Assembly: GCA_026023565.1 (NCBI GenBank)
Contig: JAPETS010000003.1
Location: 930,001 to 994,000, forward strand
DNA: 64,000 nt
Direction: 5' to 3'
From: Cirrosporium novae-zelandiae
Lineage: Eukaryota
Shown here: in pieces, positions 387 through 49,494 of the stretch
Position numbering within the stretch: the stretch's first letter is position 1
How the letters are laid out: every line of letters starts with the position of its first letter
Program-made: the position numbers and the translations under genes
The notes under the pieces: model-generated
What the model was told of the DNA's origin: nothing
What the model saw: only the letters and a program-made list of their open reading frames with translations
Database searches by the model: none

Positions 387-3300
387 TTAGGCGCTGCCCT
401 TACAATGATATAACGGGGTTTCACCCCGATTATTTGAGGAATTTAGTTCCGCCCCTTTTTCTACAGCCCAGTGCAGTGGGGCATGACCAAATATAAAGTC
501 TTTGACGTCTATATTATCCAAGTTTTGGTCAATCAAGTCCTTAAGTATCACTTTATGTCCCAGGATTGATGCTATAGCCACAGTTGTAAGGTCTAGACTG
601 ACTTTAGAGATGCTGAAGCCCATATGTAAGGTCCTAAACCATGTTCTGTACTTGTGGTAGCTTCTCAGAGCTAGATATCCAAGTTCTGTATCTTCTTACA
701 CTTCTTTAAAGTGGCCTGGCCAATAGCTTGTAGCGTAATCAAACAATGAATGACTGAAGGTATCACTTTTTATCCTCCTTTCAACTTCCCATGATAGTGC
801 TTGATTTTGGAAATTAGATAGGAAAATATATCGCAAGCAGATTTCAGCAAGAACACGGTTCGATTCGTATAATGAAATAGAATGTTTCCAAGGAGGGCTA
901 AGGTGGGATGGATCTTCCGGCAGTTTGATCAAGAATTCTCTAGCAGTTTGGTGGACCAGATATACCCTCTTATCAATTATCCTGACAAAAAGGCCACAGA
1001 GACCCTTGATCGTGTTTTGTATAGAGGGCTCGAGGCTTTCTTTCAAATTTTCTTCTGAACTATGATGACCTTTTATGGAAAAGGCGAAGTTCATTTCTGT
1101 GAGAGAGAGTGGTCTAGCAGCACCAACAACGATATACAGAATTTTTCTTGTTTGTGGATTATCGGATCCGGCCTTGGAAAGCATATTTTCGTAGACCTCG
1201 TCCAAAGTACTAGGTATATCTCTCAAATATTTTTCTAAGGCAGGTTTTGAAGCCTGGTGCTCCTTGTCGATGAAGTACAGAATAAGAGATACCCAAAGGA
1301 ATGAATGATCAGCAGATCTAATGAGTTTTTGGGTTAATTCACCACAAACATCCTCTGAAAGCCCTTTATCTCTACCAATCTCTCGGACCTTATCCCTAAC
1401 AACGAGTTTTATATCGTTATCGGTTGACGCCAATTCGTCTTCGCCTTTCAGTCTAATTGTAGGAAGTTCTTTAAAATTTCTCTCGATTTCCCGATAGGGA
1501 CGACTTGTCACTAAGACTTTTAGAGAGATATGATTCGCGACAGATTGATCCGAGTAAAGCTGAACAAGAGAACGGATAAGCTGGTTTCGAGTAGAAACTC
1601 CGCACTCGTCTAGGGCATCGATAACACAGTATATGTTCCCACTCCCGGGATCCTTTGCTGCACTTATTAGGATTTTCCACAGAGATTCAAATTCGTTAAC
1701 AAATTTCGAATCCCTTGTGTTGTATATAAGCATCGCATGCTCAAGAAGATGAGGTTTAGCAGAAAACAGCTGATGAAGTAAAGCACGGAGTGCCAGGACC
1801 GCGCTCTTCTGTTCGTCACTATCATCTTTGAAGAAGAAATAACAGGTTTTACAAGACAGTGACGCAGAATTTTTACTCAATGCACTGAGCTTGTCGGTTA
1901 TCCATGATGCCAGAACGGACTTCCCACAGCCTGGGTCTGCGGATAGCCAGAGAAGGCTTCCCCCCGGTTCCTGAAACCATGTCTGATATTTTTCGTGCTT
2001 AGAAAACCATTCACAGGTACCAGCTATTCGATGCAGCACCCTAGCTTTGCGTTTTTCATAGGACGGATAATATAACAACTATATACATGCCTACTGTTCT
2101 AGGGATAAAGTTGGAGGCTCAATAACTGTTCATAATTTGTGAGACTTTATTTTATAATAAACTCAAATTTACGTACAGGAAGATGTTAATGCTACAGATA
2201 TCACCAAATTCTTCACAGCTACCCAGACCTGCCTATATTTTGGACTTTCGGCGTCATCAAACTTGCACATTGTCTTATGATTTGTACCATCAATACCAAC
2301 AGGAGTCTCGTTTGGAAGATGTAATGTGGCTGAATCTTCGTCCACAATCTGAAGAAAGTCAGACTTAAAGATTTAAAATTTTGTACGCTTTAAATATAAA
2401 ATACGCTGGTAGGTGATATAAAGGTTCATATTAAAATTGAAGGCTCTTCGGTTGTATGAAATCTTGCATAACTTACCACTTGGTTTCCCATCTTTTCCGT
2501 TTCGAAAAACGTCCGAATTTGAAGCTGAGTACCTCTTTCGACAAATTGTCGAGATATATTTGCGAGAGTGGGCGAATTTTTTACTAATGCATCAATAAGA
2601 TTTTTATTGACTTTAAGGCCCAGTTGCCCATAATCAAGAAGGTTTGCAACAAATCTCCCCCAATAGGCGATATCTGCGCCACGATGAGGTACTCCAAAAA
2701 ATATACATGCTTTCACAGAGTGCAGAAGGGATTTGTATAGCATCAATCGTTCATTAGCAATAATCATAGCCTATAAATTATCAGCCAACCAAATTCTTTA
2801 TTTGTAAAGTTCAAGACAGACGCATCATACAACACCTACCTTCTTCATCACGATACCTCCAAGACTGTGACATATGAATAGAACTGGTCGATTCATTGAT
2901 GCTTTACCGCGTTCTCCCTCTAGTCGATCAAAAAGTAAGGTAGTTACCTTATTAATGTTTATTACACTATTAATAAAGTATACACACGAATCGTATTCAA
3001 AAACATAATTCTCGCACTAAAGCCGGCATCGCGTAGTTGATCTGGAAGAAAATCTTTAAGCCAGAATTTTCTATCGTCCGTCCATGTGTCTTTCCAGTGA
3101 CCACCTAAGCCATGGATAGCAACAATGCTAGCAGTTCAATTAGCCATGTACAGTATGAAAAATAGTTATACAACAAATCCGGACACTCAGGTTTTGGAAA
3201 GAGATCAAGGATAGTATGATGTTGGATCCTTCATCATGTATATAGTACGGAGGCTCATTACAATGGTACTGCACCATTGTGAACAGCTTCAAGACCCTAG

Positions 3301-38951: not shown

Positions 38952-41900
38952 TTACCAAACTCTCCGTTTCCTCAGGGGGGGGGCACTTGCTAATTGATTT
39001 GTTGTTGTTGCTTCATAGTTAGACTCTTTAGATTCTCCAAACTGGATTTCGTCCTCGGTGATATCATCTGATGAAGTACTTTCCAAGTCGCTCTCAACTT
39101 CATCTTCCGAATCATCGATATCGCTGTTTTCATTCTCCACTTCGTTCTCCATCGGTATTCGCGGTACTCTTCGCGCTAGGTCCCCCATGTAACCTTCTAT
39201 CCAAGAAAGGTCGCTTTCCTGACCTAATATAGACTTTGCACCATAAGACAACAGAATATCAAGCATTTTTTGAACATTCAACCCGTGGCTGGCCATCATA
39301 TTAGTGATGTACAAAGCTGAAGGGAGCTCCCCATTTGCATTGACATCGCATTCAGCTTCTAACAAAAGTCGCGCTATCTTCAGCTGAGGTGAAATAGAGA
39401 TGTCCCAATATTTATACTTTTTTTAGGTCAACCGTATATTCCAGTAGGCCGAAATATGCAGCTTGAAGAGCATTGTAACCTTCACATGTACCGATATTAA
39501 CATCTGCGTTTGATCGAAGCAACAATTCCACGATATCAATATTGCTGCCCCTGGCAGCTGCCATCTGTAACGCAGTTTCTTTATACCGTGATATAGGTAT
39601 ATTAACATCTATATTTGATTGAAGTAATAATTTTACCATATCAATATCGTCATTTCCAATTGCTTCAAGCAACGCACTTGGCCAAACATTTTCTTCTTTA
39701 AGTTCAGTATCGGTACGCTTCTCTATTAGCATTTTTACTAAATTTAACTTACCGCCAAAAGCTGCCGTCACCAGTGGTGAACTACCACTGCCAACAATGT
39801 TAATATGGTCTACGTCTTGGTCAACTAGGTATTCACATGTGTCCCAAAGTCTCAGTTCAGAAGCCATGTAAAAAGGAGAAAGCATAGAAGAATCTAACTG
39901 TTTGTGGATCATTTCAAGGTTTGGTGATGTTAAACCTTTACCAGAGACACACATATCTCTTATTGTCCTCTTGATCTTCTTATAGTCATTAGTCAAAGAG
40001 AAAATATCTAAGCCGTTAAAGGTCTCCTGTTTGTTTCCCACGACTATGCTTAGCCATTTGAGTGTTAGCACCCTTTCTTCGAAAACCGTGGCTATCAATT
40101 TAGGTGTAGGTTCAAGCGTAGTCTGATTCAGAAGTCGGGTATGTTGTACCCAGTATTCTGACGCATATTGGAGAAGTGGCGTCTTAATCGAGATACTAGT
40201 CCAGAATTTTTCCATAGAGCTCGTTAAATAATATTTGAGCCAGTCTCATAGAATAACAAACAAACTGAAGTATTGTTTTCACTCGCTTTTGAGATCTTTT
40301 ATCGATCCGGTTTAACATCCGAGTGTACGTTTCGTCCAAGGTTTCTGGAAGAGATTTGAGGGCTTCAAGAAGGTCGGCCTTGGTAACGCACTTCTTGATT
40401 TCGTCCATCTGACAGCTAACCCAGCGGAACCTGATAAGCAATTGTTTAGTTTATCAGTTTTCATATACTGTTGATTGAAAAAAAATTGATTTATAATTAT
40501 GATGAATGAAATGGGTCCTTACATTCCTTGAGCTTTACCCATTAATGTTTCCACAATCTCTCTCCGTATGTCATCCCCCAATTTGTTCAGTTGGTCGTTT
40601 TCAAGAATGTTTCTTTCGACAAAGTGTTTGATATCGGAATTAGCAACACATTCTTCAAGGCACATTTGCGTCGGAGTAATTAGTTCCAACCCCTCTCTAT
40701 TTCTATTTCCTTTCGGCTTGTTGTCAAGATGTGAAGACCATCAATCGCAGGTTTTTGTATTTTTTCAATAGCGCTCAACATCAATTCTCTTTCGGTACAT
40801 TCGTCAAGAGCGTCCAGGACAACGTAGCTCCGTTTCAGTAAAGATGCCAAGTTTTTAAATTCAAAAACGAGTTCGTTAATTGTTAGTTCGTTGAGGTCAG
40901 CTTCGCCCCTTTTCTTGTACAGCCTCTCCAGAGACTTTGGGATACCACTGCACTTATGACAAAGTTGACCGATCAAAGATCGCAACATGCCTCTACAGGT
41001 TTGCTTAGCCTTGATCTGGAAGTCGAAGTAAAAAAATACAACTGCGAGCTCGGATCTTTCTTCACAATCTTCACGGAGCGTTTAAATTATTGCTGAACTT
41101 CAATAAATAAATATTTGCACCAAAAAGCAGGAATCATTGAAATCTCGTCTAAATTATTGAAATCAGATTTCAACTAGCATAACAGAGCAAAGTTATTGTT
41201 TTACAATTAAATCTACTAACCTTAGGATGGTCTTTCCTGCTCCAGCTGTACATAGTATTAGCATAGTCCTACTCTGACGACAACATGTCTCACCTTTCCC
41301 ATGTAGCCATAAAAAAGAATAAGGACTGCTCTTCCATTCTTTGAATTCTTGCCGATCAAAGAACCAGTCACCTGTTTTATCTTGTCGTCGGTCACAGGCT
41401 GTGCTAAGGTTTTTAGAAGGATCAATATCAGGAGGGCTAATCCAGGTTATAATTCACCGTTTCCGCTCGCCTTATAAAGTTTCATGTCAGCACAGCACGA
41501 CCAAATAATAGATGAACGACAACATCATGTATAGAAACGAAGAACGTTTATGTCAACATACATTTTGAGCGGAATTCCTGATAGAGATCTTATAGTTACA
41601 AAAGCAAAGTTGGTTGATTGAAAAACATAAAAAAATTAATCTGTGGAGGATACCAATAATACTTCCAATTCAACTACACTTGAGTGTTCCATATAGGGCA
41701 GACATATATGAAGGGCATTCCTACTTACCCTCTTCCAGCTTCTCGGCCCATGGTGGCATCCTAGACACCTTTTCCGCTTTCAAAACCAAAAGAAGTTCTC
41801 TCGCATATGCTGTGGCCGTGAGGGCGGCATATTTATGCCAATCGTCATTTTTATGGGAGTCCGAATAGCCACAGATCCCTCGTATAACTAAACAAGGGAT

Positions 41901-42664
41901 ATTACCTATAAGACCAGCGGCTTCCATCTCAAAGCACAAGACATCTAAGTCTTCATCGTTTGCATATCGATCCCGATCATCAGCATCTTTCATCATAGAA
42001 TTGCCTGAGGCGATAAGTCCATAATGAATAATTATTTTTCCAGGAGTATTGCGGTCCTTCTCGCGCTCCACGGTAGGTAATCCAGCTTCCTTGCATTCCT
42101 TGCAAGTGAGTCCACCACGATGAGGGAAGTTTTTTTGATATAATATGTCCTCAGTCGGGCGTGTGTAGTACTCTGGCATGCTGGCTATTCTCTGCAAATG
42201 AGCTTCGACTCTACCGCATGTTTCAGGATCTTCGGTATCAGTCTGTACCAGGGTGACTGCGCCGAGCAACACTTTTGGGGGAGAGTCTAGTTGACCTACA
42301 CGCTCAAAGCGCCCATTGGGATATCTTTTCCCAAAATCATATTGCACGACCCCTCCGTGCCTTTTATCGGGCGTACTAACTACGACATCTCCCAATCGAA
42401 TATCTCTTTTGGTTGTTGGTGCGCCGCCACCGATTCCCACCATCAATGCAAACCTAAGATTATGAAAGGATCTGATCATGTCTTTAGCTACTGCAGTTGC
42501 CGAGCTGGTACCAATAGAGCCTTTTAGAAGACAGCCGATCACAATGAAGTGTTTGCCAATACTGCCATAAACATAGGTATTGTTATCATGAATTTCCCCT
42601 AGATCTGGACCATCAAATTTCCTATCTAGCATTCGACGTGCGACAATAAGCTCTTCTGGTAAGG
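38952..42664 (-). pseudogene. NLR-like gene: PNP_UDP phosphorylase + NACHT + ankyrin repeats; degraded
   Basis: PNP_UDP motifs LMVGIGGG, DIRLGDVVVS, IHYGLIASGN, CFEMEAAG and IRGICGYSDSHKND.W..YAA. Walker A WLHGKAGAGKTIL is split by introns; Walker B is VLDALDEC; FRWVSCQ and ankyrin TALQMAA are present. Lesions: stops at 41454-41456 (TGA) and 41082-41084 (TAA), frameshifts near 40690 and 39418-39424, and an apparent deletion near 40240. Confidence 0.9.
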
Positions 42665-42681
42665 CTAGATTTTTTGTTCAG

Positions 42682-42860: not shown

Positions 42861-42910
42861 TTTCCTAGAGATTCTACCAAGTATTTCCTAGAGATTCTAC
42901 CAAGTATTTC
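42861..42910 (+). repeat. Perfect 23-bp tandem duplication
   Basis: tttcctagagattctaccaagta x2 followed by tttc. Confidence 0.9.
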
Positions 42911-43263: not shown

Positions 43264-46200
43264 TCACCAACCGTGGCTCACTTCCCAGGGGATTATATTG
43301 TCAGCGGATTTCCACCTCTTGATTCCTTTCTCGCGGCGGAGCTTGGCCTGCCGTCGTTTCAAGATCATCTTCGCTATCATCTGCATTCGAGCGAATCTAA
43401 TAGCCTCAACTTGATCCATTTCAAGCAAGTTCTGCTTTGCTTCCTCGAAGAGGCCTCGTCTTTCCAGCTTTTCTCGTCTTCGCTCAGTAATTTTCTTGGC
43501 AATCCTCTGCATTTGGGCAAACCTAGCCATCTCGTCTGTCTTCTTCAGGGTCTGGTTGGCCTCATCGAGGAGTCTTTGTTTCTTCTCTACTGCTAGGTCC
43601 TCAGATTCTCCAACATCTAGTAATTCTAGTCTGGCGACAAAGCCCATTAGAGTTCCTCTCAGCTCTTCGTATAGATAAATTCGAGCATTCGGATGATCCG
43701 GAGGGTTACTTTGAAAATGCTCGAATGAAGGTGCAAGCTTTTCATGAAACAGGGAAGCCATCGCTTCCAGGGGGTTTCTAACTTTCAAAACTTGGACCAT
43801 CGCGTCTATACTCGGTTCATGGACCGTCAGCTTCAATAGCAAGTCTGCCGCTGCATCCGAATCATCAAAGGTCCATCCTGCCTGTTCCGTGGTCTCTGCA
43901 TTCTCTTCTGTATCCACCCTTGCCGGTTCTATCAATCTTGTTAGTTCCATTAGTACTTCTGTTGTTTCAGAGATTTCGAGCTCTATCCATTTTCGTTCGC
44001 CAGGTTCGAGTAACGCAGAGAGAATCTCGAGTAGGTTGCTTGTTTCCTGGATGTGCGACTCAATACGCCTAGCTGCGAGAAGCAGTTCGCTAGTCTTAGA
44101 AGATGTGGCACGAATAACATAGCTCGTATTAAAGAGTTTAGTGTGGGTGGTCGTAAAGGCGGGTTCTGACTCAGCTGCTGGCCTTTTGGTTGGCGGTTGG
44201 TTTGTCATTGCAAGCTCATTGACTTCATCCGTGATCTTCATAAAGTTATCAAAGTCAGGCTTTGAAGGGGTGGACACTGCCTTGCCACGGAGCTCTCCTA
44301 TAACCTCTATAAAATCATCTGCGTCAGATTCCAAAGGAAAATAAAGTTCAGGCCTATGATTGTTGTTCAATGAAGAGAAGATGTATCTTTTTAGCTGTTG
44401 GAACCGAATAATATTGGGCGAGACCCGTGTTAACCATCCCTGGGATTGAAGATCGTCTGTAATAAATGCTGCCCATGCAGGAATCCTAAATATGTCAGAC
44501 TATATTTCTTTCTTGGTGGATCAAAAACATACGAGAATGCCAAGCTTGACTTATGATGGCCAGCCTCGAGACGGACAACCCCTGATAAGCCATCCTTGAA
44601 TATACGGAGCGGATATTCGTAGCCGTCTTGGGTAATTACCCTTTGAAATATTAGTTCATTATTCATCGTTTTCAGGACAACACCTAGCGCTACCCTCCGA
44701 AGTACTCTCGCTCCCCTTCTAAGAAAAAATCATCCGGGTTATTCGGAGGGTCCGAGTCGTCTGCTCGAAGAGCCAGGAGACTGCGATGGAATAGGACCAT
44801 TGCTTTTTACATAAAGTTAGCGTATACTTACCCCGTTAAGAATGCTGGAAGCCTACTTTCATAAGTTGAGAAGGTAAACTTCGCCCATGGATCCAGTGGA
44901 TTAAATTCAGCGGAATTCGTCCAGAGCAACAAACTCGACTGATCTCGGAGGATGCTGAGTTTCGAGAGGTGTTCGTGTTGAAAGACGATACGGCCATCTC
45001 TCGGCTTTGTGTAGACTACCAACGTGTCGCGCGGCTGAGGGCGGGAATACAACCGCACAGTAAGTCTTGCTCTGGGAAGATTCCTGTTTTTGAAACATTA
45101 GCAAAAAAAAGTTAGGCAGAATGCCTTGTCAAACTTGATATGTCAAGCCAGAGGAGATTGGATGGAAAAAATTGGCTCCATACATTTGAAATATATATAT
45201 ATACCCATTATCTGTAAAATTATCTACGGGGGTGGAATCATCTTCCAACAAACGGTGATCGTTTGTCTGGGATTCGTCCGGCAAGTGTGTATTCGGCCTC
45301 TCCATCAAGAAAAGTTTGCCCATCCAGTGATTAGTATGCCGGTGGCCAGCTGAAGCCCGCGCCAATTCATTCTTGGGTGATTCTATTGTAGTAGAAGAAC
45401 CATCGAGCGGAGACAAAGGAGAGCCTGCTTCATTGGATTGTTGTTCCACGATATCTGGTATCTCTTGGAGGACATCCGAGTTTAGACTGGAGCCAGAATC
45501 TCTCTCGTCAAGCGCAGCGTCTTCGTCCCTATCCTCCTCGGAAGAAGAAGCCCTGGCTCTATCGGAGTGCACCTCGCCTTCAGGCTCCTTTCCATTCCAT
45601 GGGAGAATAAAAATGGCTAAGCGTTGCATGTGGCGTGCTAAATGGCGTCTTAATTGGTGACCATCCTGAAGACAAAGTGGACATTGCTCGGTAGCACTAT
45701 TTGCAACTGGATGCTCACACATGTCGATTATTGTGGGCAACTGATTTTCGGAAAAGATGGTAGAGTGATCGGATTGCAAATGCTCTCCGAAGGCTGAGCT
45801 CGATCCAAATTTCTCCTGGCATGCACTACAATTCCACTCTCGTCTATGGACTTGGACCTCGTGAGCACGCCATTCATATCGACTACTAAACATATGATTT
45901 GGTTGGATGCAATCTTTGAATGTGCACCTTGGTACAATTAGTGACGTAAATACAAGTTGATGAGGGTTCTTACACATAAGGTTGAAGATCTTTGAAAACA
46001 TGGAGTCTACATGTAATTAGCAAATGGTGAAGTCAGAACGACGAAAAAACTACCTCCAAGAATATGAACCTTTCGTTGTCATAATTTCGAAGCAGTATGG
46101 GCATTCGAAAGGTTCACCATCCAAGGCGCCATCTGGTGGAGGGGGTATACGTAGTTCTTGCTCAGGAGCGCTAATGCTAGATGCTATAGAAGATGTTTCC

Positions 46201-47162
46201 GTTTGACTATCATCAAGGAGTGGTTCAATGTCTTCTTCTTTGAACGTTGTTACAGTCGTCTGGGTATTTTCAGTTTTTTGAAGTGTACTTACACTTCTTG
46301 GCTTTGATATTTGGCTGCGTTCCTCCGGTACTTCTACGCTTCGGGGTCGTTTCTCATCCTGAGACACAGAGATCTTAACAGGCTCGCCTGTTGTCGCCTC
46401 AATATTGTAAGATATCTTGCTGTGATGCCTGCGCATATACTCTAAAAGCTGCCGACGCCTTGTGTTAGCTTGTCCCAGGCGACATACCAAGTCTCGTCTC
46501 GCATGTGGATATAGTTCCTCCACATGCCGAATATCCCAATATTCAAAATAAGAGACATCAATAAGAGCCGACTTTAACAGTCGATCTCTAGGGGCAGGGT
46601 TGTGAATTGCTATAGAGAGCTTATATAGGCATGTTATGATTTCTTTGATATCCACAAGCCTCTGTGATATTTCGCTTAGTGGTTGAATAATAACAGGGAC
46701 TTCTGTTTGGGGGTCATTTTCCGAAGACGTGTCTGATGAATCAGTTTCGAAATCTTCATTGTCGAACGGTAGTCTTTCTCCTGAGAAGATGGCATTGACT
46801 GCATATAGTCAGGACACGTTTTCTCCACCTGCATACATCGGCCACTGCAAATTTCCGCTAATGATCATACCCTCATTCAAAGTTTGAATCAAGTCGTCCA
46901 AAAGATCGACAACGCTATTGAACATGTTTCTTGCCTCTCTAAGGCGATAGTCCAAGGAGACACGGCCGACACGATGAGCCCCAAGGTTACCTGCCCAGAC
47001 TCTGAATCGGCCCTGCTCATTCTGAAGGGCAGAAGCAGGAATTTCACTCTGAAAAGCAAAATCTAGACGCTGGCTGAACTCGCAGGCCTGCACGAAGGAT
47101 TGCGCGCATTCCTGGTAGCGTGTAGCGATCGAACCAGCAACATGAAGGCTAGTTGTAGACAT
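43264..47162 (-). CDS. Large multidomain protein (~1159 aa): N-terminal helical domain (RFRVWAGNLGA..SLDYRLR), C2H2 zinc fingers, several diverged C-terminal domains including a BAG-like one; 8 exons
   Basis: Exons 47162-46871, 46798-46054, 46006-45974, 45927-45184, 45083-44857, 44802-44694, 44640-44533 and 44485-43264 total 3480 nt. All introns are GT-AG and there are no internal stops. Fingers: FECPYCF..W..HV, PYVCTFKDC..HE..VH, CSAC..HL..DH and CPLC..HLARH. Confidence 0.85.
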
Positions 47163-47489: not shown

Positions 47490-49494
47490 ATGGCAGAGAC
47501 TGCTGGTCTTGTTCTTGGAGTTTTCCCTTTGGTCATTGAAGGGGTCAAGCAATATTTAGAGGGTGTCAGAACCATTAAAAGATGGTGGAAATACGCCTCG
47601 GTCTTAAATCACCTACTAAGAATTTTGAAGAGGGAGAAAGCAATTTTCGAGAATACGTGTGATCTGCTTCTTTGTGACTTAGTTCCTGCATCTGTATTGA
47701 ATGATCTGCTCCAGCAACCTGGTGGCGACTTGTGGAAAAATGATAGTTTGCAGGCGAAGTTGCAGCATAGGCTGGGACGAGGATTCGATACATATCTCGA
47801 TGCAGTCACAGATATGGCGGAGATTTTGGATTCCTTCAAGGCCAAACTTGATTTAAATGAAAATGGGAAGGTATGAATGTCTAGGCATACAATGACGACA
47901 AATACCAGTCAAAACTGACAGCCTCCATAATAATAGCCTAGATGGGTGGATTACAAAACTTACAAACGAGAATGGAAGCGAGTGAGATTAATTCTTTGCG
48001 AGGAAGAGAATGAAAGAGACTTGAAAAGAATTGAGAAGTATAACAAGGATCTACAAATTTTGTTGGATCAAGGCCTGAGGCTGCAATCCCTAAAGGACTT
48101 CAAAGCATCCAGGGCATGTTCTAATGCAAAACGCTATCAGCACGTCCGAGAGCATGCTAGGGGAGTTTACAATGCACTCAAAAGAAGCTTCAGTCTTCCG
48201 TGCGGATGTCAAATCCTACATAACGCAAGCCTCCAGCTTGAACATCGTGGTAGTATGTTATCTCCGGAGGTCGATAATAAGGAAGTCGACGCAAAAAGAC
48301 TACGTTTCCATATCATTTTGCATTTTGAATTGAAGTCTACCAATGTACAACCCTTGCCATGGCACTGGCATGAAACTACTATTGAGCCATTCGCGCTCCC
48401 TAATGATTCAAGCACGATTACTACAGAGCGCCCTCCAATAATGGCATCCGCTCAATCATTCCCGAATGGGAGCGTTGTTTCCGGGGCCGCTGCTGCTCCG
48501 GAGGCACCATGGACCAGTCACAACTCTACAAGTAATTTAAATGCCTGGCTTAGGTAGGCATGCGCACTCCGAAGAGCTAGGATTACTGCTAATTGGATTG
48601 TAATATAGAAAGAGTTCACCCAGTCGACCAGGGAGAGCACCAAGGAGAACGGTGACATTTACAGTACCAAACATAAAGCTGGGGCTAGACGACCCAAATC
48701 AACCATCTCAAAAGGTTCCAGTACGGTCGGTTGTAAAGCCAGAAAGAATTACACTTCTTTGCAAAGCGCTGCGTGAAATGAAAAAGGAGGCTTGTCTCGG
48801 TCTCCTTTCCGACGAACGACAGCAAGAGTACTGCATTAGTGTCATGAAATCAATGGTTTTTCAAGAGTCCTATGGACACGTGGTGTCTCTTGATAGCTTG
48901 CTATCTGAAACAAGAAGGCTGGAGAAGAAGGATCGTCTCGCTTTAGGCATCAAGATATGCTCAACTCTTCTGCAGCTTCATGGGACGCCCTGGCTTAGGG
49001 AAAACTGGAAAAAGTCGGACATATCATTCTCGGATAAGCAGAGCCATATCCTCGCCAGGCCTCTACTTACTAAAAATTTCCTGTGTGGGGAAAATAGTCA
49101 GCCTCCGGAGCAACTAACAAGCAGTCATCCCAGCCAAGAATTTCCACAGGTCCGAAACCAGATTCTCTTTACTCTTGGTATAGCTCTCATTGAACTTTGG
49201 TTCGGGAAGCGTCTCGAAGACCTTCGCATAGCGGCTGACAAGGGGATAAATGGTGAGGTAAATAGTATTACGGATTTTTCGGCAGCAAGGAGACTCTGCG
49301 AGGAAGTATATGACGAGGCAGGGGAATGGTATGGCGATGCAGTCAGGCGTTGTATATACTGTGAATTCGACCAGCGCGATAATAACCTTCATACAGACAG
49401 CTTAAAGGAAGCCATTCACCGAGGAGTCATTGTTCCATTGGAGGAAAACCTAAAGTCATTCTGTGGAGGTCAGTTGGATAATGTTCTATGGTAA
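47490..49494 (+). CDS. HeLo-like N-terminal domain + degenerate kinase-like C-terminal domain protein (~627 aa); exons 47490-47870, 47937-48553, 48609-49494
   Basis: The N-terminus MAETAGLVLGVFPLVIEG resembles HeLo/HELL-type first helices. The C-terminal R.ALG..LLQLHGTPWL..W...DI.F, LFTLGIALIELWFG and YGDAVRRCI resemble kinase C-lobe helices but lack HRD/DFG. Confidence 0.82.

Follow-up and report, generated by a model that had tools for sequence, protein, structure and literature searches.

The window analyzed in this study is a 64,000-nucleotide stretch of the Cirrosporium novae-zelandiae genome (NCBI GenBank assembly GCA_026023565.1, contig JAPETS010000003.1, positions 930,001 to 994,000 of the forward strand). 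On its minus strand, at 43264..47162, lies a predicted zinc-finger gene of eight exons and seven introns, which encodes a protein of 1152 aa and ends with a stop codon at 43264-43266. The protein joins a conserved N-terminal core, related to proteins of the zf-C2H2_AcuF family (Pfam PF26082), to a C-terminal region that a first-pass annotation of the DNA had described as a string of separable modules. This description was confirmed by a Pfam-recognized pair of PH domains (module a), by the homologues of a three-helix domain carrying the motif LIEPARVD (module b), and by the fold of an antiparallel three-helix bundle (module c). Judged from the sequences compared, the tail appears to be variable within the family and, among the proteins retrieved, unique to the window gene.

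The gene model was built from the open frames and the sequence, with predicted splicing. Exons 1 to 4 were placed at 47162-46871, 46798-46054, 46006-45974, and 45927-45205, and exons 5 to 8 at 45083-44857, 44802-44694, 44640-44533, and 44485-43264. The seven predicted introns (72, 47, 46, 121, 54, 53, and 47 nucleotides [nt], in order) all have GT..AG borders and contain CTAAC/CTAAT/CTGAC-like branch sites. Modules (a), (b), and (c) were found approximately where they had first been annotated, in one minus-strand reading frame. The junction between the core and module (a) falls within exon 4, and the junctions among the three modules fall within a single 411-codon open frame (43264-44499). Because these junctions lie within open frames, the fusion of the core with (a), (b), and (c) is present in the DNA whatever the splicing. 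The start codon is supported, since the N-termini of homologues align from the first residues. Three introns interrupt the core, four fall within about 720 bp of module (a), and none occurs in the last 1222 bp, so that the earlier statement that introns cluster in (a) and are absent from (b) and (c) holds in the predicted model. Base composition shows no break across the core and modules (a) to (c): the GC content at third codon positions (GC3) was 0.41 for the core, 0.49 for the PH pair, 0.46 for (b), and 0.43 for (c), and the 62-codon tail alone was richer (0.63).

The conserved core comprises residues 1 to 547 (45357..47162) and contains introns 1 to 3. It consists of a helical N-terminus with the motif GRFRVWAGNLGAHR, a conserved middle region, C2H2 fingers, and the motif RHLARHMQRLAIFILP. 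The finger region is split over exons 2 to 4, and the C2H2 matches in exon 4 were weak and generic, below every Pfam C2H2 cutoff. A Ser/Asp/Glu-rich linker, placed from the translation at about residues 470 to 556 (45330..45590), follows the last finger within exon 4 and matched no Pfam family. Homologues of the core were retrieved by two word-indexed searches of longer proteins, which yielded 4 homologues among 1602 candidates with exon 4 as the query and 12 among 2021 with exon 2. When the spliced model was compared with these 16 proteins by BLASTP, all alignments were confined to residues 1 to 547 (E values of 3e-132 to 2e-51). Fourteen of the homologues were 30 to 44% identical over approximately 450 to 560 aa, and the other two were partial. 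A precomputed PF26082 annotation was present on 12 of the 16.

The C-termini of these homologues were tabulated, and the diversity that the first-pass annotation had anticipated was evident, with none of the 16 aligning past residue 547. Two proteins (Wilcoxina mikolae and Trichophaea hybrida) carry TPR_10/TPR_12 arrays, and two unnamed, N-terminally partial proteins from ENA carry NPHP3_N/NACHT. Ankyrin repeats (Geoglossum simile), a protein-tyrosine phosphatase (Y_phosphatase; Heterodermia), a cyclin (unnamed protein), and extra C2H2 fingers (Wilcoxina) were each found once, and the remaining eight proteins showed no recognizable family. PH_FT_N/C, module (b), and module (c) occurred in none of the 16. 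The relationship can be illustrated by the proteins of G. simile (M1840_001288; P0083), Morchella conica (P167DRAFT_353330; P0085), and W. mikolae (annotated as a "TPR-like protein"; P0079). These share with the window protein a core of about 500 aa (39 to 44% identity), which stays collinear from the very N-terminus as far as the RHLARHM..LA.F.LP motif, as well as a low-complexity linker after the last finger. They differ in their tails, which consist of ankyrin repeats, TPR_10/12, or unannotated sequence and lack PH_FT_N/C, (b), and (c). An invariant full-length orthologue was not found in the homologue searches that were run.

At the N-terminus of the family, HeLo (PF14479) was matched at residues 5 to 114 in two of the 12 homologues from the exon 2 search, those of M. 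conica (P0085; 25.9 bits) and Geopyxis carbonaria (P0088; 24.3 bits), against a cutoff of 23.2 bits. Exon 1 of the window gene gave no HeLo match at E values up to 1. These scores hint that the helical N-terminal region of the family may be HeLo-related.

Module (a) corresponds to the Pfam pair PH_FT_N (PF23074) and PH_FT_C (PF23076), which lie in this order along exons 5 to 8; Pfam describes both families as a "PH domain found in tandem in fungal proteins." The first domain (44717..45329) is supported by Pfam from 45067, and its HW..LF start at 45329 is putative. It is interrupted by intron 4 (45204-45084, or from the donor at 45183) and intron 5 (44856-44803). The second domain (44275..44636) is interrupted by intron 7 (44532-44486), and intron 6 (44693-44641) sits between the two domains. 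Exon 5 matched PH_FT_N positions 23 to 94 (E value of 2e-8; 34.5 bits against a cutoff of 24.4), and exon 6 matched positions 95 to 123 (E value of 8e-4; 19.6 bits alone, under the same cutoff). Exon 7 matched PH_FT_C positions 8 to 38 (E value of 9e-6; 26.1 bits against a cutoff of 25.1), and residues 5 to 70 of exon 8 matched positions 41 to 113 (E value of 2.4e-11; 44.1 bits, same cutoff). The splice sites of introns 5, 6, and 7 are thus well supported, because the numbering of the Pfam profiles is unbroken across them. The four short introns earlier assigned to module (a) therefore stand as a prediction, of which introns 5 to 7 are backed by profile continuity and intron 4 is predicted only. 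For intron 4, two donors in phase are available, 45204 (GTATAT) and 45183 (GTATGG), and the two versions of the protein differ by seven residues. A second in-frame choice exists for intron 5 (donor 44831, acceptor 44781); it was rejected in favor of the splice that joins PH_FT_N position 94 to position 95. No match to PH_FT_N positions 1 to 22 appeared at the end of exon 4. A search of the ESM Atlas with the PH_FT_N exon returned no usable match, and a literature search for PH_FT_N and PH_FT_C found nothing relevant.

Module (b) occupies 43765..44166 (exon 8 residues 107 to 240, protein residues approximately 853 to 986). The exon 8 protein (406 aa) was compared by phmmer with 1.84 billion representative proteins at E values up to 0.001, giving 78 matches. 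All but one of these fell on exon 8 residues of approximately 98 to 301, with a core at 107 to 240, a best E value of 4.3e-11, and identities of 23 to 35%. In all 77 of these proteins, which are 91 to 577 aa long, the matched stretch begins at residues 3 to 85; among the cases retrieved, the window gene alone carries the LIEPARVD domain away from the N-terminus. These phmmer and BLASTP results bore out the earlier suggestion of a likeness between (b) and part of other, separate fungal proteins annotated as hypothetical, and they define it as the N-terminal domain of those proteins. None of the 78 matched proteins contained a Pfam family (20 were scanned at E values up to 0.01 and 58 at E values up to 0.001). 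A named member was present in five of ten clusters looked up, and four of these were hypothetical proteins, from Stereocaulon virgatum, Lepraria finkii, Hypocenomyce scalaris, and C. novae-zelandiae.

The family, which we refer to as the LIEPARVD family of Pezizomycotina, is exemplified by N7G274_010105 of S. virgatum (P0001) and ABVK25_011699 of L. finkii (P0105). Its members (P0001 to P0010) show LIEPARVD followed by W-V-F-R-D, a long Ser/Thr/Pro-rich disordered middle region, and a C-terminal WL.YHA.RSD.GH, the tyrosine of which is not strict (WL.(Y)HA.RSD.GH). Module (b) corresponds to the complete domain (about 130 aa), with its E-P-x-R core and its W..(F)(R/D)D motif both preserved; LIEPARVD is retained, and the second motif reads W-T-F-D-D. 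Residues E186 and R189 are invariant across the family and P187 is conserved in at least 90%, and all three are kept in the window protein. In contrast to the family, where the domain is N-terminal and leads into the disordered region, module (b) begins at about residue 853 of a protein of 1152 aa, and module (c) comes next. Judged by its identity to the standalone proteins, (b) appears to be long diverged from them, with no sign of a recent copy.

The structure of exon 8 was modeled by AlphaFold2 with the family alignment. Module (b) was predicted to form helices at residues 129 to 158, 161 to 193, and 210 to 235, with predicted local distance difference test (pLDDT) values mostly above 90. 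Foldseek returned nothing at E values up to 0.001 for the whole exon 8 model. With VIA, in which Z scores below about 13 are not decisive for helical bundles, the (b) part of this model matched generic three-helix bundles alone (Z scores of 9 to 10.8). The coiled-coil region of a wheat resistosome matched (b) at a Z score of 9.7 and was dismissed as within the noise range for helical bundles. An ESM Atlas search with (b) and (c) together gave no usable match. Some HMMER envelopes of the (b) family reach into module (c); nevertheless, inclusion of (c) in the family was rejected, as BLASTP homology ends at about residue 237. Profile comparisons by hhalign between (b) and the N-terminus of the family core, between (b) and the N-terminus of a neighboring DUF7580 gene, and between the latter two N-termini all gave probabilities below 1%.

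The genomic surroundings of free-standing (b) genes were examined in metagenome contigs. Scanned with nine proteins of the (b) family, these yielded nine loci, flanked by as much as 10 kb on either side where the contig was long enough (three of the nine without full flank). No sequence of the core, the PH pair, or module (c) was found by tblastn within 10 kb of these loci. There is thus no sign that (b)-type genes were habitual neighbors that fused, because the nine loci hold (b) alone. Five of the loci (L005 to L009) contain an intron of about 130 nt after approximately residue 48 of the domain, about 140 to 280 nt into the match, and four (L001 to L004) do not. L006 and L007 have identical match statistics and may represent the same organism sampled twice. 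Since free-standing (b) genes vary in this way, the intron-less state of (b) in the window gene says little. The proposal that intron density reflects stepwise capture is accordingly compatible with the predicted model and is not proven by it. No repeats bracketing the modules were found.

Module (c) covers 43450..43779 (exon 8 residues 236 to 345). Modeled alone, it gave a mean pLDDT of 93.1 and a predicted template modeling score of 0.78, with two of five models confident. In the Foldseek search, BAG entries occupied ranks 1 to 7 and seven of the first ten rows (E values of 0.16 to 0.40); these were BAG-domain/HSP70 (BAG1/Hsc70) chains from 1hx1 and the 5aq* fragment-screening series. VIA placed Arabidopsis BAG1 at rank 2 (Z score of 11.8; root-mean-square deviation [rmsd] of 2.1 Å over 84 residues), Arabidopsis BAG4 at rank 3 (11.6; 1.9 Å over 81 residues), and 5aqf_B, a BAG-domain chain from an HSP70 fragment-screening entry, at rank 5 (11.4; 2.0 Å over 90 residues). 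As modeled, module (c) is an antiparallel bundle similar in size to the domain of BAG co-chaperones such as BAG1 and Arabidopsis BAG1/BAG4, at an rmsd of 1.9 to 2.1 Å over 81 to 90 residues. However, these scores were no better than those of unrelated three-helix bundles, such as the NPHP1 N-terminal coiled coil (Z score of 12.2) and designed bundles, within a generic range of 9 to 12. The Pfam BAG profile (PF02179) aligned to (c) over positions 2 to 77 of 78 with an E value of 0.036 and 15.0 bits, under the cutoff of 23.4. A Pfam scan of exon 8 residues 236 to 406 alone gave no BAG match, and phmmer with (c) and the tail against PDB sequences gave none at E values up to 10 (best E value of 0.56, unrelated). 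Of the BAG-like bundle named in the first-pass annotation, the three-helix fold with BAG among the best matches was upheld and specificity for BAG was not, so that "BAG-like" would be a fair description of the modeled fold rather than a demonstrated family membership. An unnamed protein of 142 aa (P0072) also matched exon 8 residues 272 to 345, with an E value of 3e-4.

A fourth element follows module (c) and had been overlooked. From the translation, it is a basic helical tail (43267..43524) with a duplicated motif of 23 aa, the two copies being RFAQMQRIAKK... at 43524-43456 and RFARMQMIAKM... at 43398-43330. The copies are identical at 14 of 23 positions by hand count (consensus RFA.MQ.IAK.I..RR..KL.R), and the first falls within the third helix of module (c). 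In the exon 8 model, helices of this region span residues 295 to 342, 346 to 355, and 358 to 392. The tail matched no Pfam family; its motif loosely resembles an IQ-type motif.

Directly downstream of the zinc-finger gene, on the same strand and in tandem, lies an NLR-type gene (39415-42677, minus strand). Its pieces encode a phosphorylase-like PNP_UDP_1 domain at the N-terminus (41724-42677), NPHP3_N/NACHT in two parts (41196-41453 and 40683-41081), and a set of ankyrin repeats (39415-40245). Upstream and divergent is the DUF7580 gene (47490-49491, plus strand), which encodes a helical N-terminus and a DUF7580 domain (E value of 1.3e-20). Its start is about 330 bp from that of the zinc-finger gene, and the pair may share a promoter region.

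Taking these observations together, we favor, at a probability of about 0.6, the explanation that the locus holds an intact gene of the zf-C2H2_AcuF family, with a constant core and an exchangeable tail built by domain accretion, that the tail has a docking role, and that the gene belongs to an NLR-related gene set. The roles suggested below are inferred from the anatomy of the gene, its homologies, and the variable C-termini of its relatives. The constant part would be the core of approximately 520 to 550 aa, with its helical N-terminus and C2H2 fingers, as in the zf-C2H2_AcuF family of filamentous ascomycetes, and the region past the low-complexity linker would be exchangeable between family members. 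In the window gene, the tail would have accreted from four pieces: the tandem PH pair, a diverged copy of (b), the BAG-like bundle, and the duplicated basic helix. The core would carry the common activity of the family, and the docking modules of the tail would determine its location and its partners. A membrane or a protein could be the docking site of the PH pair, module (b) could make like-with-like contacts with free-standing proteins bearing the same domain, and the BAG-like bundle may bind an Hsp70-type partner. The family probably belongs to a fast-evolving, NLR-related gene set of fungi for non-self or stress responses, because its relatives are fused to NACHT, TPR, or ankyrin domains and because the window gene lies between an NLR gene and a DUF7580 gene. 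A pangenome report on Neurospora crassa names zf-C2H2_AcuF, along with HET and ankyrin families, as one of those that vary most in copy number (PMC13412767). Besides this report, a literature search for PF26082, acuF-like, and C2H2 yielded nothing relevant among the matches listed, as judged from titles and the beginnings of abstracts.

The first-pass annotation had gone further and read the modules as baits that mimic effector targets. In such an integrated decoy, the tail would copy host proteins targeted by effectors of pathogens or competitors, and effector binding would activate the core or the neighboring NLR. The idea draws on the variable C-termini of the family, on module (b), which copies a domain of another protein family, on the two core relatives fused to NACHT, and on the NLR gene directly downstream. 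Putative integrated decoys have also been proposed for fungal NLRs in a Sordariales NLR survey (PMC12258605). With these fungal NLRs, and with plant NLRs carrying integrated domains, the window gene shares copied domains on a conserved chassis, a variable family, and an NLR next door. However, it differs from them in several defining features. A Pfam scan of the gene's exons and open frames matched no NACHT or NB-ARC domain, and there is no head-to-head helper NLR, since the head-to-head neighbor is the DUF7580 gene and the adjacent NLR stands in tandem. There is no known target or effector. Module (b) is only 23 to 35% identical to its relatives, and tblastn of the spliced protein against the 64-kb window found no second copy of (a), (b), or (c) that could be a parental gene. 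A bait is, moreover, indistinguishable here from an ordinary binding or localization module. A bait or decoy function is thus not supported, and we consider this explanation very unlikely. A broader form of the idea, that the AcuF-type C2H2 core is an unrecognized constant "output" module of an NLR-related surveillance family in filamentous ascomycetes, wired to NACHT, to TPR/ankyrin, or, in the window gene, directly to sensor modules copied from other cellular proteins (the PH pair, the LIEPARVD domain, and the BAG-like bundle), would make the window gene a receptor with bait-type domains and without a nucleotide-binding switch; we regard it as quite improbable. In the Sordariales survey, the chassis is an NLR and zinc fingers appear as an added C-terminal domain (PMC12258605), whereas the zinc-finger core is the constant N-terminal part of the window gene.

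The gene could instead encode an ordinary zinc-finger regulator, in which the C2H2 core binds nucleic acid, the tail is regulatory or localizing, and neither has a connection to NLR-type surveillance. The C2H2-type matches in exon 4, the common occurrence of PH and BAG-like domains as regulatory or docking modules, and the mostly housekeeping content of the window agree with this possibility. However, the fingers fall under every Pfam C2H2 cutoff, and the fusions of relatives to NACHT, TPR, and ankyrin, together with the copy-number variability alongside HET given in the pangenome report (PMC13412767), are unusual for transcription factors, and we find this explanation unlikely. A different view is that the gene is a young chimeric or decaying fusion of neighboring genes whose tail lacks a selected function, or that (b) and (c) are expressed from an internal start. 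Neither the 1.84 billion representative proteins nor the long proteins searched yielded a relative with this tail (as weak evidence, no long relative of exon 8 scored among 8000 candidates), in-frame methionines occur between PH_FT_C and (b), and (b) is N-terminal in all 77 other proteins. But the 411-codon frame runs through PH_FT_C, (b), (c), and the tail without a stop, the PH profile is intact over correctly phased introns, (b) and (c) fold with high confidence, and the window protein retains the E, P, and R that are conserved in the (b) family. Both versions of this view are highly doubtful.

Several points weigh against the favored explanation of an intact gene with a constant core and an exchangeable docking tail. 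Both the splice sites and the single transcript are no more than predictions. The local Pfam scan gave no PF26082 match, even in homologues with the precomputed annotation, and membership in the family rests on homology to annotated proteins and not on a hidden Markov model score of the window protein itself. The sample of 16 homologues is small and was shaped by word-based retrieval, and some of their C-terminal fusions, such as those to cyclin and phosphatase, may be merged gene models in automatically annotated assemblies. The combination of the core with tandem PH domains may recur in unsampled lineages. Functions of (b) and (c) would not be assignable from the modeled fold of three-helix bundles, and the idea of like-with-like contacts is left without a partner in the window, because hhalign links (b) to neither the core nor the N-terminus of the neighboring gene.

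If the favored explanation is true, zf-C2H2_AcuF proteins act like HET and NLR genes, with one conserved core and freely swapped partner domains (NACHT, TPR, and ankyrin among them), and one more family would be added to a poorly understood set of fungal non-self and stress-response genes. Two unannotated modules, the PH_FT tandem and the helical LIEPARVD domain, would moreover gain a testable context; with its domain in a non-N-terminal position, the window gene is a natural entry point to the question of the binding partner of LIEPARVD. On present sequence comparisons, the domain architecture appears so far unique within the zf-C2H2_AcuF family, and the individual gene would be an orphan architecture.

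Elsewhere in the window, a second NACHT-type open frame (699-2078, minus strand) encodes NPHP3_N (E value of 3.5e-44) and a GPIID winged-helix domain, and the remainder consists of housekeeping genes. A unit of 23 nt is perfectly duplicated in tandem at 42861-42906, in the intergenic spacer that separates the zinc-finger gene from the NLR gene.

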